The notes below the pieces were generated by a model that did no database searches, was not told the DNA's origin, and was given only the letters and a program-made list of their open reading frames with translations. Below are positions 59 through 35,445 of a stretch of DNA of 35,445 nt, one piece after another; the stretch's first letter is position 1; every line of letters begins with the position of its first letter. Made by a program: the position numbers and the translations under genes. This DNA is from Leptolyngbyaceae cyanobacterium. GTDB lineage: Bacteria > Cyanobacteriota > Cyanobacteriia > Cyanobacteriales > Aerosakkonemataceae. Location of the stretch: positions 126,816-162,260 of the forward strand of contig DATNQN010000123.1 of NCBI GenBank assembly GCA_036703985.1, in the 5' to 3' direction.

Positions 59-1654
59 GTGCAACGCCAATCTTATCAACGAATTACTCGCCGCAAATTT
101 ATTTTAAATTCAGCACTCACAAGTGGTGGAATTATTGCCGCTAACTTATTATCAAAAAAGGGATTAGCGCAAGCGCCGGGAATCGTCGTACCGGAAAAGA
201 TGCGACCCCAAACACCATACGGTGTAGCAACTGGCGACATCAACGGTAACAGCGCGGTAATTTGGAGTCGTTGCGATCGCCCTGCCAAAATGATTGTAGA
301 ATATTCCACCAGCGAGAATTTCCGCAACCTACAGCAAGTCGTTGGCGGCGAAGCTTCCCTCAATAGTGACTTTACAGCGCGAACTTATCTTTCCAACTTA
401 CCGCCCAATCAACAAATATTTTATCGGGTAATTTTTCAGGATCTTAGCGATCTAAATATGTACGGTTTTCCGGCAACGGGGACTTTCCGCACTCCACCAG
501 AAAACGATCGCGATATTTTATTTGCTTGGTCGGGTTGCTCGATGGGTCAAGGTTGGGGTATAAATCCAGACCGGGGGGGTCTAACTATATATGAAACGAT
601 GAGAAAGTTAGACCCAGATTTTTTCATTCACTGCGGCGATAACGTTTATGCTGACGATCCGATTTTGCCAGAAATAAAATTAGCAGATGGTAGCATCTGG
701 CGAAATATTACCACTCCCGCCAAGTCAAAAGTTGCGGAAACTTTAGCCGAGTTTCGCGGTAACTACATCTATAACTTATTAGATCGAAATATTCTGAATT
801 TCAACGCACAAGTGCCGTTGTTAGTGCAGTGGGATGACCACGAAACTAAAAATAATTGGTATCCAGGGAAAATTTTAACCGACGACGATCGCTATCAATT
901 AGTGAAAAGTTGCGATACCCTGGCAGCTAGGGCAAAACAGGCATTTTTGGAATATATGCCAATTCGCTTAAACGAAAACGATTCCCAACGAATTTATCGA
1001 TCGTTTAAATATGGCCCTAAATTGGACATTTTCATGCTGGATTTACGCACTTATCGAGGGCCAAACACAGCTAATCGCGATCGCGCAGCTAGTGACAAAA
1101 GCGCGATGATGGGAAGAGAACAACTGCGGTGGTTAAAAACTCAGTTGCTTCTTTCTAAAGCAACTTGGAAAGTGATTTCTAGCGATATGCCAATTGGTAT
1201 TATCGTGCGTGATGGAGAAAAAGCATTTGAAAGCTTCGCCAATGGTGATGGCCCACCTTTAGGAAGAGAATTAGAAATAGCCGATCTGCTGAGTTTTATC
1301 AAGGAAAATAACATTAAAAACGTAGTCTGGCTAACCTCAGATTTGCATTATGCCGTAGCTACTTATTACGACCCAGGAAAAGCCAAGTTTACTGATTTTA
1401 AACCATTTTGGGAGTTTGCGGCTGGCCCGTTGCACGGCGGCGGTTATGGGCCGCAACCGATCGACAACACTTTTGGCCCCGAAGTCAAATATCAAAGCGC
1501 GACTCCCGGTATGAAACAAAACTTACCCCTTACGGAAGGTATGCTGTTTTTCGGCACAGTTAGAATTAACGGCAACACGGAGGTAATGACGGTTTCTCTG
1601 ATTAATATGGAAGGTAGAACTGTTTACGACTTGGAGTTACCTCCAGAACTTTAG
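59..1654 (+). CDS. phoD: PhoD-like alkaline phosphatase/phosphodiesterase with twin-arginine (Tat) signal peptide
   Basis: N-terminus RRKFILNSALTSGGIIAANLL is a Tat-type signal. Metallophosphatase motifs are present (HCGDNVYADD, WDDHE). Length of 531 aa is typical for PhoD. Confidence 0.85.
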   Translation: MQRQSYQRITRRKFILNSALTSGGIIAANLLSKKGLAQAPGIVVPEKMRPQTPYGVATGDINGNSAVIWSRCDRPAKMIVEYSTSENFRNLQQVVGGEASLNSDFTARTYLSNLPPNQQIFYRVIFQDLSDLNMYGFPATGTFRTPPENDRDILFAWSGCSMGQGWGINPDRGGLTIYETMRKLDPDFFIHCGDNVYADDPILPEIKLADGSIWRNITTPAKSKVAETLAEFRGNYIYNLLDRNILNFNAQVPLLVQWDDHETKNNWYPGKILTDDDRYQLVKSCDTLAARAKQAFLEYMPIRLNENDSQRIYRSFKYGPKLDIFMLDLRTYRGPNTANRDRAASDKSAMMGREQLRWLKTQLLLSKATWKVISSDMPIGIIVRDGEKAFESFANGDGPPLGRELEIADLLSFIKENNIKNVVWLTSDLHYAVATYYDPGKAKFTDFKPFWEFAAGPLHGGGYGPQPIDNTFGPEVKYQSATPGMKQNLPLTEGMLFFGTVRINGNTEVMTVSLINMEGRTVYDLELPPEL

Positions 1655-2090: not shown

Positions 2091-2215
2091 AAGTTTTTTT
2101 GGGACTGGGGGAGCATCAAAATATCAAAAAATCATCAACAATCGGCTTTTGGTTGATTAATTTAATTTCTCAAAATCAAGAGGAATTTACTAACCAGTTT
2201 CTCTTGCTCGTGCCT

Positions 2216-2270
2216 ACCTCCTAAATTAGGGTGCGCTCCGATCGGTCATCCTCTAATTTGGGAGGTAATA
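2216..2270. other. 14-bp stem hairpin (ACCTCCTAAATTAG / CTAATTTGGGAGGT) in the long leader upstream of the TpsA-like gene; an SD-like GGGAGG is paired with CCUCC
   Basis: Inverted repeat read directly from the sequence, with one G-U pair. It is followed by two short hairpins at 2300-2350 (GCGGTTGAAACCGC and AGTCCGCCTACGCGGACT). Confidence 0.4.
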
Positions 2271-2380
2271 CCAAATTCGGGTTAGCTACCCCTCTCTATA
2301 CTTGGCGGTTGAAACCGCGACTATACAAACAAAGTCCGCCTACGCGGACTAAAGAATAAAAGGGGTGACTTTCATCTAGA

Positions 2381-2528
2381 TAACGCAAGTTGCTAGTTAC
2401 AAATATTGACCTTTAGATACCCCTTGCATCCCCCTTAATAGGGGGACGCGAGAAGGCAGTCCCCCCCTTATTAAGGTGGGTTAGGGGGGATCTAAAGCGG
2501 CTAAATTCATAACTGGCAACTTGCGTTA
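2381..2528. mobile_element. MITE-like element (~148 bp) with 19-bp TIR TAACGCAAGTTGC(T/C)AGTTA, flanked by TA on both sides, internal GC-rich mini-palindromes (CCCCTTAATAGGGGG)
   Basis: The terminal inverted repeats 2381-2399 and 2510-2528 match 18 of 19 positions. A TA dinucleotide on each side is consistent with TA target duplication. There is no coding capacity. A second, more diverged copy lies at 10931-11068. Confidence 0.6.
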
Positions 2529-2794
2529 GATAGTTAAGCCATATTTTGCGATCGTTTGCCAGATAATTTAAGTTTAGTCACTATCAAATCAGCAAAATAA
2601 AGTATAATTGAAAACCAGAAACGAGTGACTTCTTTCTCATCTTTAACTCAAACACTGTAGAAATGCTTCGATCGAATCTCTCTATGCCAACGGAAAACCG
2701 CAAAATTAAGTTGTAGGAATATTAGCGGTCAAAAAGGCCAAAGTAAAACACCGCTCGATCGAACAACATCAGGGAAAAGGTAGAAGGAAAGCAT

Positions 2795-5700
2795 ATGAAA
2801 CACTGGTGCTACTTCGTCAAGAAAAGGAACGCACTAATCTTTCAGCAGAAATTTAAAAAAAGTGCGATCGCTATTATTCTGGTGGGAAATGGATCGATCG
2901 CAATTCCGAGTCATCCCGCTTTCGCTCAAATCGTCCCCGATACCACTTTAGGTAACGAAAATTCGACAGTTACGCCCATTGATTCCACATTCGATCGCAT
3001 TGACGGCGGCGCAACTAGAGGAATTAACTTATTTCATAGCTTTCAAGAGTTTAACATTGACGAAGGACGAGGAGTTTATTTCACAAATCCCGCAGGCATT
3101 CAAAACATTTTCAGTCGGGTAACGGGAACAAATCTTTCCCAAATTTTAGGAACTCTCGGCGTTACTGGCGGTAATGCCAGCTTATTTTTAATTAACCCAA
3201 ATGGCATCATTTTCGGGCAGAATGCTCGTTTGGATGTGGCAGGTTCATTTGTGGGAACAACCGCTCATGCAGTTCAATTCGGGCAACAAGGTTTTTTTAG
3301 TGCTGCTGCGCCAAACGTTCCGCAAATCCTTACAGTCAATCCTTCTGCTTTTCTATTCAATCAAATTACTGGCCCGATCGTCAATCAATCCACCGCCGAT
3401 GAAACGGGAATGCAAGTTCCGGCGGGTGCAAGTTTAATGCTAGTTGGTGGTGACATCACCTTAGACGGCGGTATCCTCCAAGCACCGGGAGGACGCATAG
3501 AATTAGGCGGTTTAGCAGACAAAGGAAGCATTCAAATTAACTGGGAAGCAAATAATCTCAATTTAACTTTTCCCACCGATGTAAAACGTGCAAATGTCTC
3601 CTTAGAAAATAACGCTCGCGTCGATGTCAGTGCTGACGGTGGTGGAAATATTGCTATTAATGTTGATAATTTGAATGTAACGGGAAAAAGTCAAATCCGG
3701 GCAGGGATAGCATCACAATTAGGTACAGTTGATGCTCAAGCGGGAAATATTGATATTAATGCTACTGGAACGCTTAGTTTAACTGATGCTAGCTTGATTT
3801 CTAATGCCGTGCAATCGGAAGCGATCGGTAAAGGAGGAAACGTTAACATTACCGTAGGAGCGCTTTCTGTTACCGAGCAAGCAGAACTGCAAACTCTCAC
3901 TCAAGGACAGGGAGATGCAGGCAATATTATGATTAAAGCTAACGATAACGTTAACTTTAATCAAAGTTTTGTTTTCAGTGGAATAACCGAAGAAGCTATC
4001 GGTAATGCGGGAAATATTGAGATTGATACTAGTTCCCTTTCTATTAGTAATGGCGCACAACTACAATCCTTAACTAGAGGAGAGGGAAATGCAGGAAATA
4101 TTGCTATTCGAGTAGAAGATGCAGTTACTTTAGATGGAATGGTAGAAGATACTGCTCCCAGCGGAATCACTAGTTTGGTGGAATTGGGAGCATTTGGTAA
4201 AGGCGGTGATATTACTATTCAAGGACGATCGATTTTCGTAACGAATGGCGCTCAATTAGGTACTAGCACTTTCGGACAAGGTGATGCCGGAAAAATCAAC
4301 ATTCAAGCCACAGAAAAAGTAGTATTTGATGGGGGATTAAGTAACACTTTTGCCACTGCTATTTTTAGTAACGTAACAGAGGGAGCAGTTGGTAATGCAG
4401 GGGGTATTAATATCACTGCCGGATCGTTATTTGTTAATAATAGTGCTTTTGTGGATTCTAGCACTTTTGGCGAAGGAAATGGAGGTGATTTATCCATTCA
4501 AACCAATGATGATATATCTGTGGTGGCAGGAAGCATTCAAGCTACAGTAGGAGAGCGTGCGATTGGTAATGCTGGTAATATTAATATTCAGGGCCGATCG
4601 CTTTTTGTCAGTGATGGCGGTTTATTAATCACTCGCACGAATGGAGAAGGAAATGCTGGCAATATAAATGTGAATGTAACCGATATTGCCATTATTACGG
4701 GAGTGCCAAAAAATGAAGATCCTTCGATAATTCAAACATTAGCTAGTGGAATTTATAGCAATACAGAGTTTGGTGCGATCGGTGATGGCGGTAACATTCA
4801 CATCCAAGCTGGAACGCTAAATGTTACCGATGGCGCTCAAATTAATGCCAGTACAATTAGCACTGGCAAAGCAGGAAATATTAATATAGTGGTGGGAAAT
4901 GCCCTAACAATTGCAGGAGAAAATGACTTTCCCAGCCGCAGTCAAATTACCAGTCGAGTCGGTGGATTTAGTTCTAATAATACGGTGCTATTTGCGGAAG
5001 GAGATGGAGGCGATATTACCATCAAAGCGGGATCGTTAGCATTACTTGACGGCGCAACTATAGATACAATTACCTTTGGCTTGGGAGATGCCGGCAATAT
5101 CGCTTTTGATGTACGAGATGACTTTACTTTGGCAGAGAGTGCGATCAATAGCCGTGTAGCATTTGGTGCAGAAGGTAAAGGCGGTAACATCAGCGTGCAA
5201 GCAGAATCGCTTTCCGTGAAGGAAGGAGCGGAGATCACGGGTAGCTCTTTTGGCAACGGAAATGCTGGCAATATAGATATTTCAGTTCGCGATCGCATTT
5301 CTTTAACAGGGGTAGATGATGAGTATGCCAGCCAAATTACTACGGAGGTTGGTGGTGCTAGTACTGGTAAAGCCGGATACATTCAGCTAAAAGCGCGATC
5401 GCTAGAAATTACAGATGGTGCGCTACTATCTTCTCGCACCTTTGCAGAAGGAGATGCTGGCAATATTTCCATTGAAGCAACTGACTCGGTTACTATTTCT
5501 GGAACAGCACAACCAACCTCCCCTGATTCGCTCATCAAAGGCATATCAAGCGGCATATTTACTAGTAGTGAAGGGCCGATTGAATTTAGCGGAATTGGCG
5601 GTGAAATTACCCTCACCACTGGCACTTTGCAAGTAACCAAAGGAGCAGTTTTAAGTGCTACCACATTAAGCGGATCTCCGGGCGGAAATATTGTAGTTAA

Positions 5701-6802
5701 TGCCAATCGTTTAGAATTATCCGATGGAGGACAATTACTCACCACAACTTTTAGCGATGGCAATGCTGGAAATATCACTGTTAAGGCAAATGAAAATATA
5801 ATTATTTCAGGAAGCGATCCTACATTTACCGATCGATTAGCCCAACTACAAAATGTGCAAAATGAAGCCTCATCTGAGGGTTTTGAATCGATCAATTTAA
5901 TCGGTCAAAGTCCCGCCAGTGGATTATTTGCTAATACCGGAAAAGATTCCACAGGTACGGGGGGAAACTTGACAATTTTTGCTAACCAGTTGACTATTGC
6001 AAATGAAGCCGCAGCCGCAGTCACCAGCCAAGGAACCGGAGGTGCAGGTACGTTAAAAATAACCGCTCCTATCTTGCAATTAAGCAATAGTAATTTAACT
6101 GCCGACACTCAAGAAAAAGGGCAAGGAAATATTGAATTAAACGCACAAAATATCCTACTGCGTCGCAACAGTTTAATTAGTACCAACGCAGGAAACACCA
6201 CAGGCGGTAATATTGCGATCGATACGCAATTATTAACCGCCCTAGAAAATAGCGATATTACAGCCAATGCAGTAGCAGGTTTTGGCGGTAGAGTTAACAT
6301 CACCGCCCAAGGGGTTATTGGCAGTCAGTTTCGCGCACAACAAACCCCAAACAGTGACATCACCGCCACATCTGAATTAGGTTCGCAATTTAGCGGCATT
6401 GTAGAAATTAATACCCCCGAAGTTGACCCCAGCGCGGGATTAATAGAATTGCCAGAAAATGTATTGGATATTAACCGATTAGTTGCCCAAAGTTGCCCAG
6501 CCAATCCTAACGAACAAGGTAGCGAATTTTTCATTACCGGACGCGCTGGTTTACCCCCCAATCCCAATGAAGCCCTCAGCGATGAAGCGACTTGGATAGA
6601 TTTAAGACCAACTAATAAAGCTTCAAATAATCAAACTCAAACACCAATAAGCGATCGTCAATTCTCTCCTCATACTACCAAAATAGTCGAAGCTACAGGT
6701 TGGGCGATCGCACCCGATGGTAAGCTAATCTTAATCGCCAATTCACTTAATCCCACACCCCATTCCCCAACATTCACCCCCCCTTCCTGCCAAAACAAGT
6801 AA
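2795..6802 (+). CDS. TpsA-like large exoprotein: N-terminal two-partner-secretion (haemagglutination activity) domain followed by long beta-helical G-x-G-N-A-G-N-I repeat region and a non-repetitive C-terminal ~250 aa
   Basis: The TPS-domain hallmarks include NPNGI (LINPNGIIFG, nt ~3194-3205) and the FSRVTG...LGTLGVTGGNASLFL context. About 25 degenerate repeats of G(E/Q)G(D/N)AGNIxI follow. The extended N-terminal signal region is typical of TpsA proteins. Confidence 0.85.
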   Translation: MKHWCYFVKKRNALIFQQKFKKSAIAIILVGNGSIAIPSHPAFAQIVPDTTLGNENSTVTPIDSTFDRIDGGATRGINLFHSFQEFNIDEGRGVYFTNPAGIQNIFSRVTGTNLSQILGTLGVTGGNASLFLINPNGIIFGQNARLDVAGSFVGTTAHAVQFGQQGFFSAAAPNVPQILTVNPSAFLFNQITGPIVNQSTADETGMQVPAGASLMLVGGDITLDGGILQAPGGRIELGGLADKGSIQINWEANNLNLTFPTDVKRANVSLENNARVDVSADGGGNIAINVDNLNVTGKSQIRAGIASQLGTVDAQAGNIDINATGTLSLTDASLISNAVQSEAIGKGGNVNITVGALSVTEQAELQTLTQGQGDAGNIMIKANDNVNFNQSFVFSGITEEAIGNAGNIEIDTSSLSISNGAQLQSLTRGEGNAGNIAIRVEDAVTLDGMVEDTAPSGITSLVELGAFGKGGDITIQGRSIFVTNGAQLGTSTFGQGDAGKINIQATEKVVFDGGLSNTFATAIFSNVTEGAVGNAGGINITAGSLFVNNSAFVDSSTFGEGNGGDLSIQTNDDISVVAGSIQATVGERAIGNAGNINIQGRSLFVSDGGLLITRTNGEGNAGNINVNVTDIAIITGVPKNEDPSIIQTLASGIYSNTEFGAIGDGGNIHIQAGTLNVTDGAQINASTISTGKAGNINIVVGNALTIAGENDFPSRSQITSRVGGFSSNNTVLFAEGDGGDITIKAGSLALLDGATIDTITFGLGDAGNIAFDVRDDFTLAESAINSRVAFGAEGKGGNISVQAESLSVKEGAEITGSSFGNGNAGNIDISVRDRISLTGVDDEYASQITTEVGGASTGKAGYIQLKARSLEITDGALLSSRTFAEGDAGNISIEATDSVTISGTAQPTSPDSLIKGISSGIFTSSEGPIEFSGIGGEITLTTGTLQVTKGAVLSATTLSGSPGGNIVVNANRLELSDGGQLLTTTFSDGNAGNITVKANENIIISGSDPTFTDRLAQLQNVQNEASSEGFESINLIGQSPASGLFANTGKDSTGTGGNLTIFANQLTIANEAAAAVTSQGTGGAGTLKITAPILQLSNSNLTADTQEKGQGNIELNAQNILLRRNSLISTNAGNTTGGNIAIDTQLLTALENSDITANAVAGFGGRVNITAQGVIGSQFRAQQTPNSDITATSELGSQFSGIVEINTPEVDPSAGLIELPENVLDINRLVAQSCPANPNEQGSEFFITGRAGLPPNPNEALSDEATWIDLRPTNKASNNQTQTPISDRQFSPHTTKIVEATGWAIAPDGKLILIANSLNPTPHSPTFTPPSCQNK

Positions 6803-6846: not shown

Positions 6847-6864
6847 TATCCAAACTACCTGTTC

Positions 6865-6890
6865 GTAGTGAGGACTTTAGTCCTCACTAC
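6865..6890. repeat. 26-bp perfect palindromic SDR GTAGTGAGGACTTTAGTCCTCACTAC; contains the stop codon and last codons (..VCSED*) of the FGGY kinase gene
   Basis: Palindrome read directly from the sequence. The same unit recurs at 7714-7767, 16477-16557 and 23341-23366. Confidence 0.85.
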
Positions 6891-8319
6891 AAACTGTGAT
6901 ATCATTCCCAACACCCCTCATCGCCAACAGCGCCGTACCATAAGCAGCAGCAGTATTCACTGGCGGTAAAATAGGTACTTTTAAATAACGAGCGCGAATT
7001 GCCATCCAAGTAGGATTCTTTGCACCACCGCCAGCAGTATAAACGCGAGTTAACGGCGTTGCACCAAATTGTTGCAATAACTGATAACCCCGTGCTTCAA
7101 TCCGAGCAATACTTTCCAACAAACCATGCAAAAATTCCGCTGGATTTTCCGGTCGAGGTGATAACTTTGGCTGCAAATTCGGGTCATTAATAGGAAAGCG
7201 ATCTCCTGGTTTCAACAAAGGATAATAATCAAGCAAAATCTCGTTTTCTCCATCAATTTCTTTACTTAAATTTTCCAATTCACTATCAGTAAAAAACTGC
7301 CGCAACACCGCACCACCAGTATTAGACGCACCTCCAACTAACCATAAATCAGACCTCGCCCCCAACCCCTCTCCTGCAAGGAGAGGGGAGTAATTCTCCC
7401 CCCTTCCCTGGTAGGGAAGGGGGGCTGGGGGGGTTAGGTTTATTGGTAACCTATGACTGTAAATTCCATATTTTGCATCATCTACGCGAGTGCGACTCAA
7501 CAATTTAATCACCAAAGTAGAACCCAAAGATGTACTAGCTTCACCGGGAGAAGTTGCACCGCTAGCAAGAAATGCGGCAATACTATCAGTAGTCCCCGCA
7601 CAAACTACGCAATCTTTTCTTAAACCTAAACTATGAGCAATTTCCAATGTTACTTCACCTATCGGAGTTCCCGGTGCAACAACTTCCGGCAATTGTATCG
7701 ATATATCTTCTAAGTTCGTAGTGAGGACTTCAGTCCTCAAAAAAGGACTAAAGTCCTTACTACAAACTAGCCATTCCGGATAACAGAGATTTTCCACATC
7801 GTAACCGAGTTTCAAAGCATTGTGATAATCACTAATTCCTAATTTTCCATGTAATAAAAAAGCCAACCAATCTGCCTGATGCAAAAAATAAAACCTTCTC
7901 TTATCCCCCCCTTGGTAAGGGGGGTTAGGGGGAATCTTTTCTAACCACCAGAAGAGTTTGGCGAGGGAAGAAGTAGCGCTGATTACGGTATGGTTTGGCG
8001 GTGCAATTTCCCTCACTTTATCCAATACTTCTGCACCCCGCGCATCGTTATACAAAAGCGGTTCATCAATTGGATTACCAGCAGCATCACAAAGTAGCAC
8101 GGTAGAGGAAGTCCCGTTCATACAAATCGCTTTAATTTGCTCCCGTAGTTGTTGAGGAATTTGGTGAATGAGAGAAAACAAAGCTTGCTGCCAAAGGTTT
8201 GCTAAATTTACTGAATTTTCAAATGGATATTGCGTTTCAGTTTCGATAATTCCTGTTTCATTGATTAATATTGCCCGTGCGCCAGATGTACCAAAATCGA
8301 TGCCAAGGTAGAGGTTCAT
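6877..8319 (-). CDS. FGGY-family carbohydrate kinase (xylulokinase/glycerol-kinase-like)
   Basis: N-terminus MNLYLGIDFGTSGARAILI is the FGGY N-terminal ATPase signature. The protein is 480 aa. The frame is intact despite four repeat insertions (see the repeat features). Confidence 0.8.
   Translation of the reverse strand: MNLYLGIDFGTSGARAILINETGIIETETQYPFENSVNLANLWQQALFSLIHQIPQQLREQIKAICMNGTSSTVLLCDAAGNPIDEPLLYNDARGAEVLDKVREIAPPNHTVISATSSLAKLFWWLEKIPPNPPYQGGDKRRFYFLHQADWLAFLLHGKLGISDYHNALKLGYDVENLCYPEWLVCSKDFSPFLRTEVLTTNLEDISIQLPEVVAPGTPIGEVTLEIAHSLGLRKDCVVCAGTTDSIAAFLASGATSPGEASTSLGSTLVIKLLSRTRVDDAKYGIYSHRLPINLTPPAPLPYQGRGENYSPLLAGEGLGARSDLWLVGGASNTGGAVLRQFFTDSELENLSKEIDGENEILLDYYPLLKPGDRFPINDPNLQPKLSPRPENPAEFLHGLLESIARIEARGYQLLQQFGATPLTRVYTAGGGAKNPTWMAIRARYLKVPILPPVNTAAAYGTALLAMRGVGNDITVCSED
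7362..7436. repeat. two GC-rich mini-palindromes (CCCCTCTCCTGCAAGGAGAGGGG at 7366-7388; CCCCCCTTCCCtggtaGGGAAGGGGGG at 7398-7424) inserted in-frame in the FGGY kinase CDS
   Basis: Perfect palindromes read from the sequence. They translate to ..LPYQGRGENYSPLLAGEGLGA.. inside the kinase. The same C-run/TT..AA/G-run architecture is found inside the MITE-like elements. Confidence 0.7.
7714..7767. repeat. compound palindromic SDR (GTAGTGAGGACTTCAGTCCTC-AAAAAA-GGACTAAAGTCCTTACTAC) inserted in-frame in the FGGY kinase CDS
   Basis: Same family as 6865-6890. It translates to ..LVCSKDFSPFLRTEVLTT.. on the minus strand. Confidence 0.8.
7903..7936. repeat. GC-rich mini-palindrome CCCCCCCTTGGTAAGGGGGG + TTAGGGGG inserted in-frame in the FGGY kinase CDS
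   Basis: Palindrome read from the sequence. It translates to ..IPPNPPYQGGDKR.. in the kinase. Confidence 0.7.
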
Positions 8320-10930: not shown

Positions 10931-11068
10931 TAACGTAAATTGCTAGTTATAATCGATCCCCCCCTAACCCCCCTTAAAAAGGGGGGAACCGGATCTCTTA
11001 GTCTCCCTTTTAAAAAAAATGCAAGGGGGATCTAAAACGCCTAAACTCATAACTAGCAACTTGGGTTA
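10931..11068. mobile_element. second, diverged copy of the MITE-like element (TIR TAACGTAAATTGCTAGTTA / TAACTAGCAACTTGGGTTA), TA-flanked
   Basis: It shares TIR cores and internal blocks with 2381-2528 (GATCCCCCC, CCCCTTAA..GGGG, GGGGGATCTAAA.CG.CTAAA.TCATAACT). The TIRs carry three mismatches. Confidence 0.55.
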
Positions 11069-16476: not shown

Positions 16477-16557
16477 CAAAAGGACTAAAGTCCTTACTAC
16501 AAACCATAAAAATTAAATTGTTAGTTCGTTTGTAGTGAGGACTTCAGTCCTCAAACC
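16477..16557. repeat. compound SDR: two inverted copies of the GTAGTGAGGACT..AGTCCTCACTAC-family unit (16477-16504 and 16528-16557) separated by 23 bp, between gyrA stop and lnt start
   Basis: Read from the sequence. The second unit contains an in-frame ATG (16535) that the ORF track used as the lnt start. Confidence 0.8.
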
Positions 16558-16570
16558 GCAAAAAAGTTAC

Positions 16571-18187
16571 ATGAAAATCAAAATCATATGGCATTTCGCC
16601 ATCTCTTTATTTGGCGGTATTCTAATGGGGTTAACAACTGCCCCAGTAAATGCTTGGCCATTAGCATGGATAGCCCTAATTCCCCTCTGGATTTCAGTAA
16701 TTAAAACTCAAAACAAACCAAAACCATTTCACCCTTCACCCTTCATCCTTCATCCTTTACTTTGGGGTATCGGATATCACGGCATTGCCTTATTTTGGAT
16801 TACCGGAATTCACCCCATGACATGGCTGGGAGTTCCCTGGTGGCCGAGTTTAGCGATCGCAATTTTTTGTTGGACGTTCATCACTCTTTGGGGTGCGGCA
16901 TTAGTTACCGTTTGGGCGATCGCCTCTAAAACCATTTTCAACTTAATTGAAAATCCCAAATCTCCCCTCAAAAATAGCCTTTTTCGCATCTTAATCGGCA
17001 CGACTTTTTGGTGTGCTTTAGAAACCTTTTGGAGTTGGGGCGATTTATGGTGGACATCCCTATCTTACACCCAAAGCCCCCACAATCTCCCAATTTTACA
17101 CCTCGCTCAAATTTCCGGCCCCAACACGATTACAGCCGCTATCGTAGCCGTAAACGCAACAATTGCTGAATTGGTCATCGGTCATTGGTCATTGGTCATT
17201 AATAAAGAAAAACATAAGTTATATCGAAAAATTTTCCCTAAATTACTGGTTATCATTAGTTTCTTAGTAGGATTGCATTTAATAGGATTTTTTCTCTATA
17301 ATCGTCCCCTGATTCAAACACCAGAAACCGCATTAAAAGTAGGAATCATTCAAGGCAATATACCTAATCAAATCAAATTCAATTCAGCCGGATGGTATCG
17401 CGCTATCGAAGGTTATACCACCGGATATCGCGAGTTAGCAGATCGGGGAGTCGATGCAGTTTTAATCCCCGAAACAGCATTACCATTTATCTGGACAGAT
17501 CCGAATCAAGTCCCTCGTTCCTTTTACTCTGCCGTATTAGAAAAAGGCGTAGTTGCTTGGGTAGGAGGTTTTGGACAAGAAGGAAATAATTTTACCAACA
17601 GCTTATTTACAATTAGTGGCAATGGTAACATTTTCAGCCGTTACGACAAAGTAAAATTAGTTCCCTTGGGAGAATATATCCCCTTTGAAGAAATCGTCGG
17701 AAAATTAATCGATCGCCTTTCTCCCCTAGACGCCCATTTAGTGAAAGGAAAACCAACTCAAATATTTGAAACCCCTTTTGGGCGTGCCATAGTCGGTATT
17801 TGCTACGATTCGGCTTTTGCTAAACTCTTTCGCCGTCAAGCTGCGGCGGGCGGGCAATTTATTCTCAGCGCTTCTAATGACGCCCATTATAAAGCATCGA
17901 TGGCTGCCCAACACCATGCCCAAGATGTAATGCGGGCAATTGAGAACGATCGCTGGACTCTCAGAGCCACCAATACAGGTTATTCTGCGATCGTAGACCC
18001 CCACGGCAGAACTCTGTGGATATCGAAAATTAACACTTACGAAATTCATGCGGCAACAATTTATCGGCAACAGAGTCAAACCTTATATGTTCGCTGGGGA
18101 GATTGGTTAACACCCCTTTTGCTAGCAATAGTTACGACCACTAGTGCAGGAGAATATTACTACCAAAGGGTGAAGTCGGAAGTCTAA
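16571..18187 (+). CDS. lnt: apolipoprotein N-acyltransferase
   Basis: An N-terminal polytopic membrane domain is followed by a CN-hydrolase domain (VGICYDSAFAKLFRR..SASNDAHY). The start at 16571 (MKIKIIWH..) is preferred over 16535, which lies inside the SDR. The CDS contains two in-frame heptamer arrays. Confidence 0.85.
   Translation: MKIKIIWHFAISLFGGILMGLTTAPVNAWPLAWIALIPLWISVIKTQNKPKPFHPSPFILHPLLWGIGYHGIALFWITGIHPMTWLGVPWWPSLAIAIFCWTFITLWGAALVTVWAIASKTIFNLIENPKSPLKNSLFRILIGTTFWCALETFWSWGDLWWTSLSYTQSPHNLPILHLAQISGPNTITAAIVAVNATIAELVIGHWSLVINKEKHKLYRKIFPKLLVIISFLVGLHLIGFFLYNRPLIQTPETALKVGIIQGNIPNQIKFNSAGWYRAIEGYTTGYRELADRGVDAVLIPETALPFIWTDPNQVPRSFYSAVLEKGVVAWVGGFGQEGNNFTNSLFTISGNGNIFSRYDKVKLVPLGEYIPFEEIVGKLIDRLSPLDAHLVKGKPTQIFETPFGRAIVGICYDSAFAKLFRRQAAAGGQFILSASNDAHYKASMAAQHHAQDVMRAIENDRWTLRATNTGYSAIVDPHGRTLWISKINTYEIHAATIYRQQSQTLYVRWGDWLTPLLLAIVTTTSAGEYYYQRVKSEV
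16728..16759. repeat. heptamer array (CCCTTCA/TCCTTCA x~4.5) in-frame inside lnt, encoding ..FHPSPFILHPLL..
   Basis: A 7-bp periodicity read from the sequence. It belongs to the same CCTTCAT/ATGAAGG family seen in intergenic arrays at 18188-18245, 21185-21226, 29221-29262 and 34405-34425. Confidence 0.8.
17171..17200. repeat. STRR2-type heptamer array TTGGTCA x4 in-frame inside lnt, encoding ..ELVIGHWSLVIN..
   Basis: Exact TTGGTCA repeats read from the sequence. TTGGTCA is the STRR2 unit described in heterocystous cyanobacteria (recalled from memory). Confidence 0.85.
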
Positions 18188-18282
18188 AGGATGAAGTATT
18201 AAGTCTGAAGGATAAATAATAAAGGATGAAGGATGAAGTAAAAAGAATTTAATTTTGAATTTTGAATTTTGAATTTTGAATT
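18188..18282. repeat. intergenic heptamer arrays (AAGGATG/ATGAAGG-type followed by AATTTTG x5)
   Basis: The sequence reads aattttgaattttgaattttgaattttgaattc at 18250-18282. Spurious ORFs translate this region as HPSSF/ILHPLDF repeats. Confidence 0.8.
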
Positions 18283-18336: not shown

Positions 18337-20121
18337 ATGACACTTCCTATCAACACATTCTTTGACGAAGGTTACTATAGCCTCAACAATCCTGATGTTT
18401 ATGCCGCCATTCTCAAAGGACAAATTAGTAACGGATACCAACATTTCATCAGCGTTGGTGCTAGAGATGGACGCAATCCAAGTGAAGTATTTGACAGCAA
18501 ATATTACTTAGGTTTGTATCCAGATATAGCAGCAGCAGTTGCTAATGGCAGCATTGCTAGTGCTTACGATCATTTCGTGCAATTCGGTGCTAGAGAAGGG
18601 CGCGATCCTTCTCCCTTATTCAGCAGCAGTTACTACCTCAGTCAATATCCAGATGTAGCAGCAGTTGTTAATAGTGGAGGCATTCGTAGCGCTTTCGATC
18701 ATTTTTTAGCATTTGGTGCTAACGAGGGTCGAAATCCCAGTTCATTATTTAATACTAGCGTTTATCTCAGTCAAAATCCAGATGTGGCTACTGCGGCTGC
18801 TACAGGTGTAATTAGTGCTTTTGAACATTATATTCGCTTCGGTAAAAACGAACAAAGACCGGGTGTATTAGCCGATCGATTCGACATTCAATTTGACTAT
18901 CGTTTTGATACCAATCGTTTTTTTGCCGACCCGGTAAGAAGGGGTGTTTTAGAAGCAGCAGCTAATGTCTGGGAATCTTATATCCAAAATGAATTTAAAG
19001 ATGTTCCTGCTGGTACTTCATTTAGATTTCTCAATCCTACATCTGGTTTGATTGAAGAATTAAGTTTAAATTCTGATATTGATGATTTGCTAATTTTGGT
19101 AGGGGCAGGGCCAACACCTTTTGGCGACTTAACCGATGCTTTGGCAGCTTCTGCTACAGAAGGTTACGAAACTACTGGCAGTACCTACTACAACCGATTA
19201 ACTGGCTCTCAATTTCAACCTTTTCTCGGTACGCTTTCGTTTAATTCCACATTAAATTGGTTTTTCGATCCCTCGCTGGATACATCTAATGATATCCCCT
19301 CCGGGGCGCAAGATTTTTACAGTACTGCTTTGCACGAAATCGCACATATTTTGGGATTGGGAGGCGCACCTATTTTCCGACAATTAGGTGAAGGGGCTTT
19401 GTTTAACGGTGTGAATGCCAAAAATGTAAATGGCGGTTCTCCGATTCCTTTAGAAACCGATTTAGGACATATCAAAGATGGTTTTTTAAGTGATGGTCAA
19501 CCAACGTTAATGGACCCCACTTATCCGAATGCTCGAATTATTCCCACGCGGGTAGATTTGGCAATGTTGGCGGATATTGGTTACCGAATTCCCGGTTTTC
19601 AACCGCAAGGTTCTTTATCAACTTTATCAACTCCTAATGATGACACTATTTTTGGTACGGTGCAGAATGATGTCATCAATGGTAATGCTGGTAATGACTA
19701 TCTTTTGGGTGATTTAGGTGCGGATATTCTCAGGGGTGGTGCTGGGGATGATATCGTTTCTGGGGAAGATGATAATGATATCTTATTTGGCGATCGCGGA
19801 AACGATCGAGTATCGGGCGGTTTAGGCGATGATATCATCATTGGTGGCCCTGGCGATGATAACTTGTTTGGCAGCGGTGGGCGAGATACATTTATTTATG
19901 ACGCTGGCAGAGATGCGATCGCGGATTTCCGAGTATCAGAAGACATAGTACAAGTAAGTCGAGCCCTCGGTTTTGCTAATGGTGCTGCTGCTTTCAACGC
20001 GATTACTACCGGGACGAATGACAATGGCGATCGCTATTCCATCTTGACAGTTACTTCCCAAAACATCCTCACCATCTTCCACGATGTGCCGATGACAGCA
20101 GCTAACTTTACAGTTGTCTAG
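18337..20121 (+). CDS. secreted RTX-type (hemolysin-type Ca-binding repeat) protein with four N-terminal ~46-aa tandem repeats and a central metzincin-like domain carrying a degenerate HEIAHILGLGG motif
   Basis: There is no N-terminal signal peptide. Four repeats of ..YYLSQYPDVAAAV..G.I.SAFDHF..FGA.EGR.PS.LF lie at aa ~10-185. HEIAH is at nt 19333-19347, but the third His of HEXXHXXGXXH is replaced by Gly. GGxGxDxUx nonapeptide repeats occupy aa ~450-520, consistent with a T1SS substrate. Confidence 0.75.
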   Translation: MTLPINTFFDEGYYSLNNPDVYAAILKGQISNGYQHFISVGARDGRNPSEVFDSKYYLGLYPDIAAAVANGSIASAYDHFVQFGAREGRDPSPLFSSSYYLSQYPDVAAVVNSGGIRSAFDHFLAFGANEGRNPSSLFNTSVYLSQNPDVATAAATGVISAFEHYIRFGKNEQRPGVLADRFDIQFDYRFDTNRFFADPVRRGVLEAAANVWESYIQNEFKDVPAGTSFRFLNPTSGLIEELSLNSDIDDLLILVGAGPTPFGDLTDALAASATEGYETTGSTYYNRLTGSQFQPFLGTLSFNSTLNWFFDPSLDTSNDIPSGAQDFYSTALHEIAHILGLGGAPIFRQLGEGALFNGVNAKNVNGGSPIPLETDLGHIKDGFLSDGQPTLMDPTYPNARIIPTRVDLAMLADIGYRIPGFQPQGSLSTLSTPNDDTIFGTVQNDVINGNAGNDYLLGDLGADILRGGAGDDIVSGEDDNDILFGDRGNDRVSGGLGDDIIIGGPGDDNLFGSGGRDTFIYDAGRDAIADFRVSEDIVQVSRALGFANGAAAFNAITTGTNDNGDRYSILTVTSQNILTIFHDVPMTAANFTVV

Positions 20122-20999: not shown

Positions 21000-21184
21000 T
21001 CTTTACACCTCTGTTAGTTAAGCACAAGTACTTATCTTACATTTCATTAAGCACTTTTAAGTAACTTAAGGAAAAAAGAATCTTTTTTCTCATTTGCGAT
21101 CGAACCTTCACCCCATTGGCCCAGGACTTAGGCTTGTTGACTAAGGAATGAGGGGTGCAGGGGAGAGAGGGAGATAAATATAAT

Positions 21185-21226
21185 TTCATCCTTCATCCTT
21201 CATCCTTCACACTTCATCCTTCACTC
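21185..21226. repeat. heptamer array CATCCTT/CACCTTC x6 overlapping the stop codon of tsaB
   Basis: The sequence reads ttcatccttcatccttcatccttcacacttcatccttcactc. The minus-strand TGA (21221-21223) lies in the last unit. Confidence 0.8.
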
Positions 21227-21883
21227 GATCGGATGCTGACCGTAAAAAGGCAGCGCCTCCGACCAATGGGGACGCAATCCTTTTTGCCAATCCAGATATG
21301 CCAGTTCCAACACGCTAGTCACCGAACCGCCCAAATTCTTCGGTGCTTCGATTAATTCATAGATATCTGGCCAATTTGCCAGGGTTTCTTCCCATTTTTC
21401 CGGCTTCATCACCGCATCTGGTAATAATTCAACTACACCAGCATCATTACCCGCCACCTTATATATAGCCACAAATATTTCACCCCGATGGGCAGGCAAC
21501 TGAACTGCCACCTGTTTAGAAAGACCTCCCTCTTTCTCAAATGACAAATGACTACTGACAAATGACGAGTATGCTGCTAACGAAGACACTGTAAACAATG
21601 GAATATCTAGCTGTTGGGCAATAGTACGCGCAGTAACTACCCCGATTCGAGTACTGGTGAAACTACCCGGGCCGATCGCCACAGCCATAAATGCCAAGTC
21701 TTCCCAAGTTTGAGGGTATATAAATTTACTTAAAATATCGTGTAAATGCGTAGATAATTCTACGCCTAATTCCCATGTTTGAGAGCGACGATCGTTCGTA
21801 AAGTCCCCGATCGCGATCCCTAATTCTCCGCTGGTTGTGTGAAGAGCAAGGCCGTATTTTCTTTTTTCTGGCAAAACCAACAT
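21221..21883 (-). CDS. tsaB: tRNA threonylcarbamoyladenosine biosynthesis protein TsaB (YeaZ-like, Kae1/TsaD paralog)
   Basis: The N-terminus LALHTTSGELGIAIGDF and the GPGSFTSTRIGVVTARTIAQQLDIP motif are typical of YeaZ/TsaB. The protein is ~220 aa. It contains an in-frame AATGACA-type heptamer array at ~21538-21570 encoding SSFVSSHLSF. Confidence 0.7.
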   Translation of the reverse strand: MLVLPEKRKYGLALHTTSGELGIAIGDFTNDRRSQTWELGVELSTHLHDILSKFIYPQTWEDLAFMAVAIGPGSFTSTRIGVVTARTIAQQLDIPLFTVSSLAAYSSFVSSHLSFEKEGGLSKQVAVQLPAHRGEIFVAIYKVAGNDAGVVELLPDAVMKPEKWEETLANWPDIYELIEAPKNLGGSVTSVLELAYLDWQKGLRPHWSEALPFYGQHPIE

Positions 21884-23299: not shown

Positions 23300-23340
23300 T
23301 TTGTAGCAACCAAAAGCTTTATTTGGTAAATTCCGAGCTT

Positions 23341-23366
23341 GAGGACTTTAATCCTTACTACAAACC
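23341..23366. repeat. single unit of the GAGGACTTTA(A/G)TCCTTACTACAAAC SDR family immediately 3' of ycf34
   Basis: It matches the units at 16477-16504 and 7741-7767. It ends 4 nt from the ycf34 stop. Confidence 0.75.
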
Positions 23367-29220: not shown

Positions 29221-29262
29221 AGGCAAGGGGAAAGGATGAAGTATGAAGGATAAAGGATGAAG
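29221..29262. repeat. AAGGATG/ATGAAGG-type heptamer array directly 3' of cdsA
   Basis: The sequence reads aaggcaaggggaaaggatgaagtatgaaggataaaggatgaag. Confidence 0.7.
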
Positions 29263-29345
29263 TTGAATACAAAGCAACTATTCCTCCCCTGTATACTCTT
29301 TCCCTTTCCCCCTGCCCCGGAGACCCTTTCCTCTTCCCCTTTCCC

Positions 29346-34266: not shown

Positions 34267-34417
34267 GGGGCTAGGGGCTAGGGGCTAGGGGAAGAGGGGA
34301 AAGGGAGAAAAGGGGAAAGAGAAAATTTTGTGGCTCTTGAATTCTGACTCCTGACTCCTTTCCTTACTCCTGAATTCTGAGTTCTGAATTCTGAATTCTG
34401 AATTCAGCCTTCATCCT
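34262..34417. repeat. composite heptamer arrays (GGGGCTA x3, purine-rich GGGGAAAGGGAGAAAAGGGGAAAGAG, then pyrimidine-rich CTGACTCCTGACTCC.., TGAATTC x4, CCTTCAT x2) forming an imperfect long hairpin between convergent NUDIX and rlmN genes
   Basis: Read from the sequence. The purine-rich left arm partly complements the pyrimidine-rich right arm. The rlmN TGA stop (34418-34420) lies inside the terminal CCTTCATCC unit. Confidence 0.75.
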
Positions 34418-35445
34418 TCATCCTTTAGTTGCTCTTAATTGTCCGCAAGCGGCATCTGCTTCTAATCCTCGCGAATAGCGGACGCTAACTGCAATATGTC
34501 GCTTTTCTAAAGCTGATACGAAAGCTTGAATGCGTTTAGCATTGGGTCTTTGATAATCAGCTTCGTGAATGGGATTGTAAGGAATCAAATTAACGTGACT
34601 TTGGAAACCTTTTATATATTCAGCTAATTCTTGGGCGTGTTCTGGTAAATCATTTAATCCGGCCAAGAGAATATATTCAAAAGTTACTCTTCTGCCAGTT
34701 ATTTTTACATATTCCCGACATTCGGATAGCAAAGTTTCGATCGGATAATGTTTGGCACTGGGAATTAGTTTTTCTCGTAAAGTTTGATTGGATGCGTGCA
34801 GACTAACTGCTAAAGTAACTTGCAATTGATATTCTGCTAAACTGCGAATTTTACCAGGAATGCCAACCGTAGAAATAGTGATTCCTCGTTGTCCAATACC
34901 GACATCTTGATTGAGGGATTTGACGGCTCCAACTACATGATCTACATTCAATAATGGTTCGCCCATACCCATAAAGACAATGTGGCTGACGCGACGTTGA
35001 AAATCTTCTTGAACGGTGAGAACTTGATCGATTATTTCGTGGCGGGCTAGGTTGCGAATGAAACCGCCTTTGCCGGTGGCGCAGAAGTCGCACGCCATTG
35101 GACAACCAACTTGGGAAGAAACGCAAACAGTTAAGCGTTTTTCGGAGGGAATACCGACAGTTTCAATGATGTTTCCATCGTCAAGTTTGAGTAAATATTT
35201 GACGGTTTCATCGCTGGCAACTGAGCGATAATGAATAGTTGCTCGACCAATGTTTATGTCTGCTAAATCTTCTCGCCATTGTTTGGGAAAAACTGTAATT
35301 TCGGCAAGATTACGGATTCCTTTTTCATAAATCCATTGATGTAATTGACGACCTCGATATGCTGGTTGTCCTTGTTGTTTTACCCAATCGGTTAATTCTG
35401 TTAAATTTGCACCGAGTAGGGGTGGGGAGATGGGGGGATGGGGGG
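34418..35445 (-). CDS. rlmN: 23S rRNA (adenine2503-C2)-methyltransferase / tRNA m2A37 methyltransferase RlmN, radical SAM; 5' end runs off the window
   Basis: The radical-SAM CxxxCxxC motif reads ..[16 protein letters not shown]. Manual translation upstream of the ORF-track M (35098) stays open to the window edge and gives the RlmN N-terminal domain (..[50 protein letters not shown]..). The C-terminal Cys reads ..ADAACGQL. Confidence 0.9.

Follow-up and report, generated by a model that had tools for sequence, protein, structure and literature searches.

The following described systems come closest to the protein analysed here. CdrA of Pseudomonas aeruginosa, partnered by CdrB, is a type Vb adhesin whose C-terminus bears a cysteine hook and that is released by LapG, a periplasmic protease. 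HMW1/HMW1B and HxuA/HxuB of Haemophilus influenzae use a C-terminal disulfide loop as an anchor in or under the TpsB transporter's pore (PMC5422565). FhaB/FHA of Bordetella pertussis joins a signal peptide, a TPS domain and a beta-helical shaft to a C-terminal portion retained in the periplasm. In cyanobacteria, a multi-copy 'filamentous hemagglutinin family' has been recorded, with 23 copies in Waterburya agarophytonicola and relatives in Beggiatoa, and roles in adhesion or filament formation were suggested; these reports go no further than annotation (PMC8580901, PMC1951784).

We analysed a tpsA-like gene within a 35,445-nucleotide stretch of a Leptolyngbyaceae genome, referred to here as the window (Table 1). 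The protein, annotated as 'filamentous hemagglutinin N-terminal domain-containing protein', belongs by sequence to the same family as the cyanobacterial filamentous hemagglutinins. Our data indicate an ordinary gene, a solo copy from a very large cyanobacterial family, itself uncharacterised, whose members are secreted beta-helical fibre proteins. Its C-terminus is probably not a toxin but an anchoring tail with two cysteines.

Table 1. Features of the tpsA-like locus (window coordinates)
Feature	Position	Strand	Evidence or remarks
Conserved hairpin, arms TACCTCCTAAATTAG / CTAATTTGGGAGGTA	2215..2267	+	23-nt loop; 125 nt 3' of DUF4327 stop codon
Block of two small GC hairpins (2305-2318, 2333-2350)	2271..2366	+	Insertion relative to ortholog L082; 70% gapped; fold
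MITE with TAGATA duplication on either side	2377..2532	.	Element 2383-2526, 144 bp; -80.7 kcal/mol, z -9.6
TATAAT, candidate -10 element, in block GCAAAATAAAGTATAAT	2603..2608	+	Conserved in all three orthologs (alignment); putative
tpsA-like gene	2795..6802	+	ORF call; 1335 aa; exact match to NCBI HEY9853238.1 (Leptolyngbyaceae MAG)
Sec signal peptide, aa 1-44	2795..2926	+	Read from sequence; predicted cleavage between AFA and QIVPD
TPS secretion domain, aa 44-287	2924..3655	+	PF05860, E 7.6e-59; TIGR01901; NLFHSF and INPNGIIF motifs
Beta-helical repeat shaft, aa 288-1212	3656..6430	+	Motif count, AF2, nucleotide identity, dN/dS
C-terminal tail, aa 1213-1335	6431..6799	+	Pro/Asn/Thr-rich, mostly disordered; conservation, Cys statistics, AF2, TpsB fusions
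REP-like hairpin repeat GTTCGTAGTGAGGACTTTAGTCCTCACTACAAAC	6861..6894	.	Between convergent tpsA and FGGY genes; repeat families D6, D8

Passenger architecture and genomic setting

Judged by its TPS domain, the gene product is a type Vb (two-partner secretion) passenger. The signal peptide, whose junction (..A-x-A followed by Q(I/S)..PD.TLG) is common to homologs, is followed by the TPS domain with its NPNG motif (INPNGIIF, aa 132-140), and the nearest solved chain to this domain is the TPS domain of HxuA (4i84, E 2.2e-7). The shaft contains 21 GxxGNIxI-type motifs at intervals of 28-74 aa, for the most part 28-45 aa, and there is no cysteine between aa 6 and aa 1233. The domain matches and repeat motifs support the sequence-only reading of a TpsA-like exoprotein with an N-terminal TPS domain and a repeat shaft. 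That reading also held that the last 250 aa or so lose the repeats, which is correct for aa ~1213-1335, a non-repetitive region poorly ordered in AlphaFold models, and incorrect for aa 1080 to ~1212, which AF2 models as a confident beta-helix (pLDDT ~90).

With dN/dS against two orthologs at 0.06-0.38 in every segment, the gene is intact, and purifying selection acts along its whole length. The shaft is the most divergent, mosaic portion between orthologs, with 77-86% nucleotide identity to the syntenic ortholog L002 compared to approximately 95% at either end, and the ortholog P0003 is shorter by 129 aa. Within the protein, constraint is strongest in the final coils, aa 1080-1212 (SDITANA...SDITATS), where dN/dS is 0.06-0.10. 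Conserved ends that flank a variable, repeat-number-polymorphic stalk have also been reported for CdrA (bioRxiv 10.64898/2026.07.13.738186), likewise a TPS-type passenger in which stalk repeat number varies while the C-terminal anchor is well conserved (PMC5422565; bioRxiv 10.64898/2026.07.13.738186).

The gene was correctly placed between phoD upstream and an FGGY kinase gene downstream; we found in addition a small DUF4327 gene upstream and that the FGGY kinase gene is convergent with the tpsA-like gene. Further window copies of the REP-like repeat between these two genes lie at 7714-7767, 16478-16555 and 23339-23365. The gene had also been called an orphan. At the locus this holds, as no ShlB/POTRA protein is encoded by the scanned window ORFs of at least 100 aa, which are housekeeping genes or an RTX protein, and TpsB is absent as well from the 6.4 kb upstream of the gene in L002. 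It does not hold as a peculiarity, however, since TpsB is found nearby at just 8 of the 35 family loci with good coverage, and not at the other 27. Unlinked TpsB is the norm for this family, which comprises 7,616 homologs at E<=1e-10, the named ones nearly all cyanobacterial, and in whose loci tandem TpsA paralogs are common. Genes for exported TPR-CHAT, CHAT-CHASE2 and DUF928 proteins adjoin about half of the family loci; the window copy has none of these neighbours.

Mobile repeats and a conserved hairpin upstream

The spacer upstream of the gene (2091-2794) is mostly a landing site for small mobile repeats that inserted recently. The element proposed to be MITE-like has every defining feature of a MITE, including 19-nt terminal inverted repeats (2381-2399 and 2510-2528), the TAGATA duplication, a second window copy (10931-11068) and, in L002, an unoccupied site where TAGATA stands once; it is likewise missing from a third orthologous locus, L082. 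The two further short hairpins that had been noticed also fold as described. Neither the MITE nor the block of small hairpins occurs in orthologs, so neither is a conserved regulator. A CRISPR-DR28 match at 2328-2351 (28.7 bits against an Rfam gathering score of 35, single copy) was judged to be due to chance.

The CCUCC/GGGAGG hairpin, also called from the sequence, is real: it folds and is kept in three orthologous loci. Its 15-nt arms (2215-2229 and 2253-2267; dG -26.7 kcal/mol, z -4.3) occur once in the window and are identical in L002, while the version in L082 has one U.G to C-G change, one wobble and one mismatch (-32.8 kcal/mol, z -6.3). It is the only candidate conserved element of the spacer. 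We considered whether all 704 nt of the spacer might form a transcribed, structured 5' leader, or encode a small RNA, with post-transcriptional control of tpsA exerted through this hairpin; we find this doubtful. In its favour, folding is much more stable than for shuffled versions of the spacer (z -6.8) and the U.G to C-G change preserves pairing. The MITE and the block of two small hairpins, however, account for most of that energy, and both are lacking in the orthologs. Furthermore, the spacer is 97-99% identical to that of L002, which does not exceed the identity of the phoD and DUF4327 genes next to it; in the comparison with L082, identity is 80-83% for the hairpin region and 62-80% for neighbouring spacer segments; no Rfam family matched the spacer at its gathering score; and no start codon follows GGGAGG. 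The conserved TATAAT lies 340 nt 3' of the hairpin. Although a consensus promoter scan did not call this TATAAT, owing to its weak -35, its conservation suggests a promoter approximately 190 nt upstream of the ATG and a 5'UTR of only that length.

The two-cysteine tail

Both cysteines that had been noticed near the C-terminus are present, and C1234 (nt 6494-6496) and C1332 (nt 6788-6790) are the sole cysteines of the mature protein. The tail carries G-L-x-E-L-P and, between its cysteines, TGRAGLP (nt 6536-6556) and a beta-hairpin, IVEATGW..GKLILIA (nt 6683-6739). Among homologs C1234 is conserved in 99% and C1332 in 91%. The tail is C-terminal in 255 of 256 family members; exactly two cysteines occur within the last 140 aa in 251 of these 255, and 236 have no other cysteine after the signal peptide. 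The median spacing of the two cysteines is 98 aa, with the last one a median of 3 aa from the C-terminus. Two conserved near-C-terminal cysteines in an otherwise cysteine-free passenger are the arrangement expected of a cysteine hook. A profile built on the final 256 aa (last coils of the beta-helix and tail) matched 9,487 cluster representatives at E<=1e-30, and among the best 150 of these 9,487 almost all matches were C-terminal. Tail-bearing proteins that lack a TPS domain were N-truncated fragments only.

The tail matched nothing in Pfam or the PDB and no known fold; a profile of the C-terminal module retrieved no PDB chain at E<=1. Homology of the tail to the anchors of CdrA, HMW1 or HxuA was not detectable either, HxuA being matched by the TPS domain alone, and the likeness to these anchors lies in function and logic. 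The region belongs to no well-known FHA pretoxin or repeat family, as no curated family exists for it, yet it is a hallmark of the family and not unique to this protein. In AlphaFold models the tail is disordered apart from one hairpin and is of low confidence both alone and fused to TpsB; in the fused model the hairpin alone rises to pLDDT ~77, which a different alignment may explain. We found five ORFs that are natural TpsA-TpsB fusions (P0120, P0261, P0264, P0265 and L055 9890-14710). In these, shaft and tail are followed by a Pro-rich linker and then by POTRA domains and a ShlB barrel, and the tail end is thereby placed next to periplasmic POTRA domains, which indirectly supports a disulfide-bonded C-terminus retained in the periplasm or pore.

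An effector or toxin domain and an anchoring module had both been offered for this region, and the evidence favours the anchoring module. We lean, with slightly better than an even chance of being right, toward a retained surface fibre that is tethered to TpsB by a cysteine hook. The protein would be exported via the Sec system and its TPS domain would engage a TpsB transporter encoded elsewhere in the genome. The cysteine-free shaft would then thread outward and fold on the cell surface into what is presumably an adhesin or matrix fibre, while the last ~120 residues would stay behind, where the two conserved cysteines may form a periplasmic disulfide loop. Because such a loop could not pass the pore, the fibre would remain tethered to TpsB by a cysteine hook like that of CdrA, HMW1 and HxuA.

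It is unlikely, in our estimate, that the protein is instead a released exoprotein in which the last coils and tail act as a folding cap or autochaperone, with a disulfide formed outside that stabilises the fibre end and no tethering. The strong constraint on aa 1080-1212 agrees with this, as do a conserved hairpin (IVEAxGW..G.v.L) that could cap the helix and Foldseek matches to generic beta-helices only. Capping, however, leaves unexplained a disordered, Pro-rich segment of ~120 aa closed by a cysteine at the extreme C-terminus, the strict absence of cysteines from the rest of a protein of 1,000-2,000 aa, and the fusions of the tail to periplasmic POTRA domains. A polymorphic or CDI-type toxin, with a variable C-terminal effector delivered to neighbouring cells, has as its one argument the general precedent of frequent toxin domains at non-repetitive C-termini of TpsA proteins (PMC5422565, PMC3482391) and is effectively refuted, given that the C-terminus is conserved over thousands of proteins and not polymorphic, has no predicted globular fold and no VENN, pretoxin (DUF637) or toxin Pfam match (nothing beyond TPS), that the next gene is the convergent FGGY kinase and not an immunity gene, and that the list of T5SS polymorphic-toxin lineages in PMC3482391 omits Cyanobacteria.

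Comparison with described anchors and a possible release system

The proposed hook resembles CdrA in that two C-terminal cysteines would lock the protein in TpsB. Unlike CdrA, the tail has no sequence similarity to the CdrA anchor and no TAAG LapG site, carrying instead the motif TGRGGLP (TGRAGLP in the window protein); the associated protease family is CHAT and not BTLCP; and no gene for TpsB or a protease lies near the window copy. Compared to HMW1 and HxuA, the shafts and functions are unrelated and TpsB is encoded at an unlinked site, not in a shared operon as in Haemophilus. The Pro-rich cysteine loop of ~98 residues is far longer than the short HMW1 loop, which would speak against a hook, and the cysteines could just as well pair once exported and stabilise a cap outside the cell. 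FhaB shares the overall plan, including the proposed periplasmic retention, but its degraded prodomain is ~1,200 aa compared to a tail of ~120 aa, and the window protein has no similarity to it and no FHA-type Pfam repeats.

Family relatives adjoin genes for an exported TPR-CHAT protein with a cysteine-protease fold and a membrane sensor-like CHAT-CHASE2 protein, an arrangement reminiscent of LapG/LapD. We hypothesized that an undescribed cyanobacterial system for surface fibres may use the two-cysteine tail with TGRGGLP as its handle for retention and release, although we consider this rather improbable as a whole. The disulfide loop would tether the fibre in TpsB, the exported TPR-CHAT (caspase-fold) protease would shed the fibre by cutting the periplasmic tail, perhaps following the conserved Arg, and the CHAT-CHASE2 membrane protein and DUF928 would exert control; the window gene would be a solo substrate served in trans. 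If true, this system would parallel LapG/LapD-CdrA in function while consisting of unrelated parts. The literature searched contained no experiments on any member of the family and no description of the tail, its cysteine pair or the CHAT/CHASE2/DUF928 neighbourhood.

The locus itself is of very little import, being one more copy of a multi-copy family already recognised by annotation pipelines. At the level of the family, our analysis delimits an uncurated C-terminal module of ~120 aa, with two cysteines and the motifs TGRGGLP and EAQGW, that marks thousands of cyanobacterial TpsA proteins, along with natural TpsA-TpsB fusions and a recurrent neighbourhood of CHAT-CHASE2, DUF928, TpsA, TpsB and TPR-CHAT. 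Together, the module, the fusions and the neighbourhood provide a testable hypothesis for how surface fibres may be attached and shed in filamentous cyanobacteria.

Passenger protein and its evolution

The ORF at 2795-6802 (forward strand) encodes a 1335-aa protein identical to NCBI HEY9853238.1 (Leptolyngbyaceae MAG). The gene is real and intact, and within the very large TpsA family of cyanobacteria it is an ordinary member. The window itself is cyanobacterial and contains 27 HIP1 sites (GCGATCGC) against 0.5 expected. The sequence-only reading had described a TpsA-like exoprotein with a TPS domain and a repeat shaft, and our data confirm this: the sole Pfam domain is TPS (PF05860, aa 44-287, E 7.6e-59), TIGR01901 was matched in NCBIfam, and 21 GxxGNIxI-type motifs run along the shaft at a spacing of 28-74 aa, mostly 28-45. 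The protein begins with what looks like a Sec signal peptide, which ends in AFA before QIVPD, a junction common to homologs; among solved chains, the HxuA TPS domain (4i84, E 2.2e-7) is the nearest.

We compared the gene with its orthologs at two recovered loci, L002 and L082. Nucleotide identity to L002 is approximately 95% in both the TPS domain and the C-terminal 256 aa, and 77-86% in the shaft; dN/dS ranges from 0.06 to 0.38 across all segments, with its minimum in the last coils. The gene is mosaic, since shaft residues 291-700 are nearer to L082 than to L002 while the TPS domain is nearer to L002. Conserved ends with a variable stalk have been reported for CdrA, and the window protein has the same pattern. 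The ortholog P0003 is 129 aa shorter. Upstream, phoD is intact in the window (59-1654, 531 aa), is called as two ORFs in L002 (3844-5450; PhoD_N of 196 aa and PhoD of 329 aa), and is missing in L082, where the position has just a 51-aa ORF (6629-6784). Since L082 has no phoD at the equivalent position, the phoD-tpsA adjacency is not conserved.

Upstream spacer and repeats of the window

The spacer upstream of tpsA (2091-2794) had been suggested to be a structured, repeat-invaded leader with a regulatory role; two of the three elements of this hypothesis now have less in their favour. The spacer folds with a z of -6.8 versus shuffled sequence, and this surplus comes mostly from two insertions, the MITE and the two-small-hairpin block. 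The MITE-like insertion was borne out by its terminal inverted repeats, its duplication and an empty site in L002; it is also absent in L082. Relative to L002, the spacer is 97-99% identical, which equals the adjoining phoD (97.7%) and DUF4327 (99.6%) and therefore indicates no special constraint. The part around the MITE insertion site is an indel hotspot; adjoining this site, L002 (6163-6204, against window position 2367) has 32 extra nt (ATTTAAGTGGGATTTGGTATAATATCGGATCT) that contain an extended -10-like TGGTATAAT.

The CCUCC/GGGAGG hairpin shows one pairing-preserving change among the three loci and folds well in the window and in L082. The hairpin region is 80-83% identical to L082 versus 62-80% for neighbouring spacer segments, an excess of conservation that is suggestive but not compelling. 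Scanning metagenomes with the hairpin pattern ACCTCCNAAATTAGGGTG returned 120 matches, of which nearly all belong to a single repeat family with no relation to it (GGGAACACCTCCAAAATTAGGGTGGAATAGGGG...), and the full hairpin was in none of them. This abundant repeat (...GGGAACACCTCCAAAATTAGGGTGGAATAGGGGTGGGGTCA...; L083-L202, on contigs Ga0056123/131/132 and Ga0209681/788) is present in more than 100 copies in a few metagenomes and matches the hairpin pattern by chance. A block (GCAAAATAAAGTATAAT) containing a TATAAT is conserved in all three loci; as a candidate -10 box, it would leave a 5'UTR of approximately 190 nt and place the hairpin and repeats upstream of the transcript. A sigma-70 consensus scan called nothing in the window spacer, this TATAAT included, and nothing on the tpsA strand of the L082 spacer. 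Within the spacer, no Rfam family scored above threshold and no notable small ORFs were listed.

The second MITE copy lies between the genes for the M50/TPR protease and the deacetylase; its terminal inverted repeats match those of the first with 1-2 mismatches, and its core has diverged. REP-like double-hairpin repeats (GTTCGTAGTGAGGACTTCAGTCCTCAAAAAAGGACTAAAGTCCTTACTACAAAC) are found between genes in the window, a further copy is present in L002 (3470-3525), and one copy lies in frame inside the FGGY ORF (6877-8319, minus strand), where it encodes ..LVCSKDFSPFLRTEVLTTNL... Short tandem heptamer-type repeats (AAAGGATGAAGT / CCTTCATCCTTCA), which resemble cyanobacterial STRR elements, occur at several gene boundaries. 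The window probably encodes a second secreted protein at 18337-20121, which has 594 aa and RTX calcium-binding repeats (PF00353); no genes for type I secretion were noted next to it.

Spacer features and repeats of the window
Feature	Position	Remarks
CCUCC/GGGAGG hairpin	2215-2267	single-copy in window; kept in all three loci
Two-small-hairpin block	2271-2366	missing in L082
MITE	2383-2526	TAGATA duplication; 19-nt terminal inverted repeats; fold -80.7 kcal/mol
Second MITE copy	10931-11068	
TATAAT, candidate -10 box	2603-2608	
REP-like repeat, within FGGY ORF	7714-7767	
REP-like repeats, intergenic	6861-6894, 16478-16555, 23339-23365	
Heptamer-type repeats	16726-16757, 18165-18253, 21183-21228, 29231-29263, 34394-34425	

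Transporter linkage and family neighbourhood

That the locus has no TpsB, as first proposed from the window, was upheld. All scanned window ORFs of at least 100 aa are housekeeping or the RTX protein, with products including phoD, FGGY kinase, M50/TPR protease, deacetylase, ClC channel, gyrA, Lnt, CCA-adding enzyme, histidine kinase, MalQ and others; none of these ORFs is a TpsB, CHAT, CHASE2 or DUF928 gene. The order in L002 is a 336-aa gene, UvrD, the split phoD, DUF4327, tpsA (87% aa identity) and FGGY, and in L082 it is EAL, histidine kinase, UvrD, the 51-aa ORF, DUF4327 and tpsA (83% aa identity). These gene orders indicate that no TpsB lies just beyond the window on its upstream side. 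The top matches to a cyanobacterial TpsB query were Nostocales-type only, none assignable to the source MAG. DUF4327 was rejected as a family-wide partner; it adjoins tpsA in the three orthologous loci only.

We questioned how the gene compares with 79 genome loci carrying TPS-domain relatives, recruited by TPS-domain alignment. The C-terminal module is present at nearly all of them, and paralogs often occur in tandem. Neighbour families, clustered and then checked against Pfam, were TPR+CHAT (40 loci), CHAT+CHASE2 (30), DUF928 (23) and TpsB (14-15). Where at least 4 kb was available on both sides (35 loci), TpsB was found in 8, TPR-CHAT in 20 and none of the four families in 8. A TpsA without a linked TpsB is not unusual in this family, and the window gene is one of a 'solo' minority. 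The usual cluster order is [response regulator], CHAT-CHASE2, DUF928, TpsA with the two-Cys tail, TpsB and TPR-CHAT (for instance L016, L043, L051 and L072), with recurrence in 40 of the 79 loci (L003-L081). A signal-peptide-like N-terminus is present in 26/29 TPR-CHAT and 19/23 DUF928 proteins. No description of the CHAT/CHASE2/DUF928 cluster was found in the literature searched, where DUF928 led to one unrelated paper; cyanobacterial FHA-family genes have received annotation-level mentions only (PMC8580901, PMC1951784).

The two-cysteine tail and its likely role

The last ~250 aa had been thought to lose the repeats. This holds for aa ~1213-1335, where the AlphaFold model (32-sequence alignment) shows coil of low confidence and a single small hairpin in the IVEATGWAIAPDGKLILIA segment, but not for aa 1080-~1212, modelled as a confident beta-helix (pLDDT ~90). 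HMM and fold searches with the C-terminal module matched no known FHA-type pretoxin or repeat family: there was no Pfam match, nothing significant in a PDB sequence search with the module profile, and no significant Foldseek match to the model. The 256-aa module is nonetheless widespread: among the 120 best homologs, 119 contain it, and in 99 its end lies within 25 residues of the C-terminus. A tail-only query of a word-indexed protein database returned 4 short fragments and missed the query itself; an exhaustive profile search with the module was used instead and gave 16,467 cluster representatives at E<=1e-3 (9,487 at E<=1e-30), with the match C-terminal in nearly all of the 150 best.

A tail-only HMM found the tail in 255 of 256 proteins. 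Exactly two Cys lie within the last 140 aa in 251 of these 255, and 236 have no further Cys after the signal peptide. The median spacing of the two Cys is 98 aa (range 70-127), and the median distance from the last Cys to the C-terminal end is 3 residues. Where a protein has the tail but no TPS domain, it is a fragment truncated at the N-terminus. Four short stand-alone ORFs (P0257-P0260, 129-220 aa) comprise the tail alone and may represent either orphan tail cassettes or fragments of genes; one of the four, carried by a contig of 5.7 Mb, bears the annotation 'large exoprotein'. Of the 256 proteins, 132 have an exact TGRGGLP motif; in the window protein it reads TGRAGLP. A link between R/K in this motif and CHAT adjacency (odds ratio 5.1, Fisher p 0.048, uncorrected for relatedness) was set aside because the statistic is too weak.

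For the C-terminus, an effector or toxin domain or an anchoring module had been considered. Since the tail is conserved, disordered and Cys-bracketed on an otherwise Cys-free passenger, we rejected the effector or toxin reading. We favour a C-terminal anchor, by analogy with the TPS literature and from natural fusions to TpsB. The two-Cys tail can be likened to the C-terminal disulfide loop of HMW1 and HxuA, which is held in the TpsB pore (PMC5422565). Similarly, CdrA is anchored in CdrB by a 'cysteine hook', and its periplasmic tail is cut by the periplasmic protease LapG (PMC5422565; PMC4694147; bioRxiv 10.64898/2026.07.13.738186).

Beyond the last tail Cys, five fusion ORFs (P0120, P0261, P0264, P0265 and L055 9890-14710) read on through a linker rich in Pro to POTRA_2 and a ShlB barrel, and they contain no second signal peptide. 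These ORFs thus join a TPS/beta-helix passenger and two-Cys tail to a complete TpsB, a type Vd-like layout with a Vb passenger; their motif lacks Arg (KGSGGLP in four, TGLGGLP in L055). POTRA domains are periplasmic, and because the tail is fused directly to them its end would lie at the periplasmic face of TpsB. This placement, read from the fusion sequences, agrees with what the retention model predicts. In an AlphaFold model of one natural tail-TpsB fusion the tail had a pLDDT of 30-40, with the hairpin alone reaching ~77, and no contacts were readable. Our most interesting findings are properties of the family rather than specific to this locus: the tail module, the fusions of TpsA to TpsB, and the neighbourhood of CHAT, CHASE2 and DUF928 genes.
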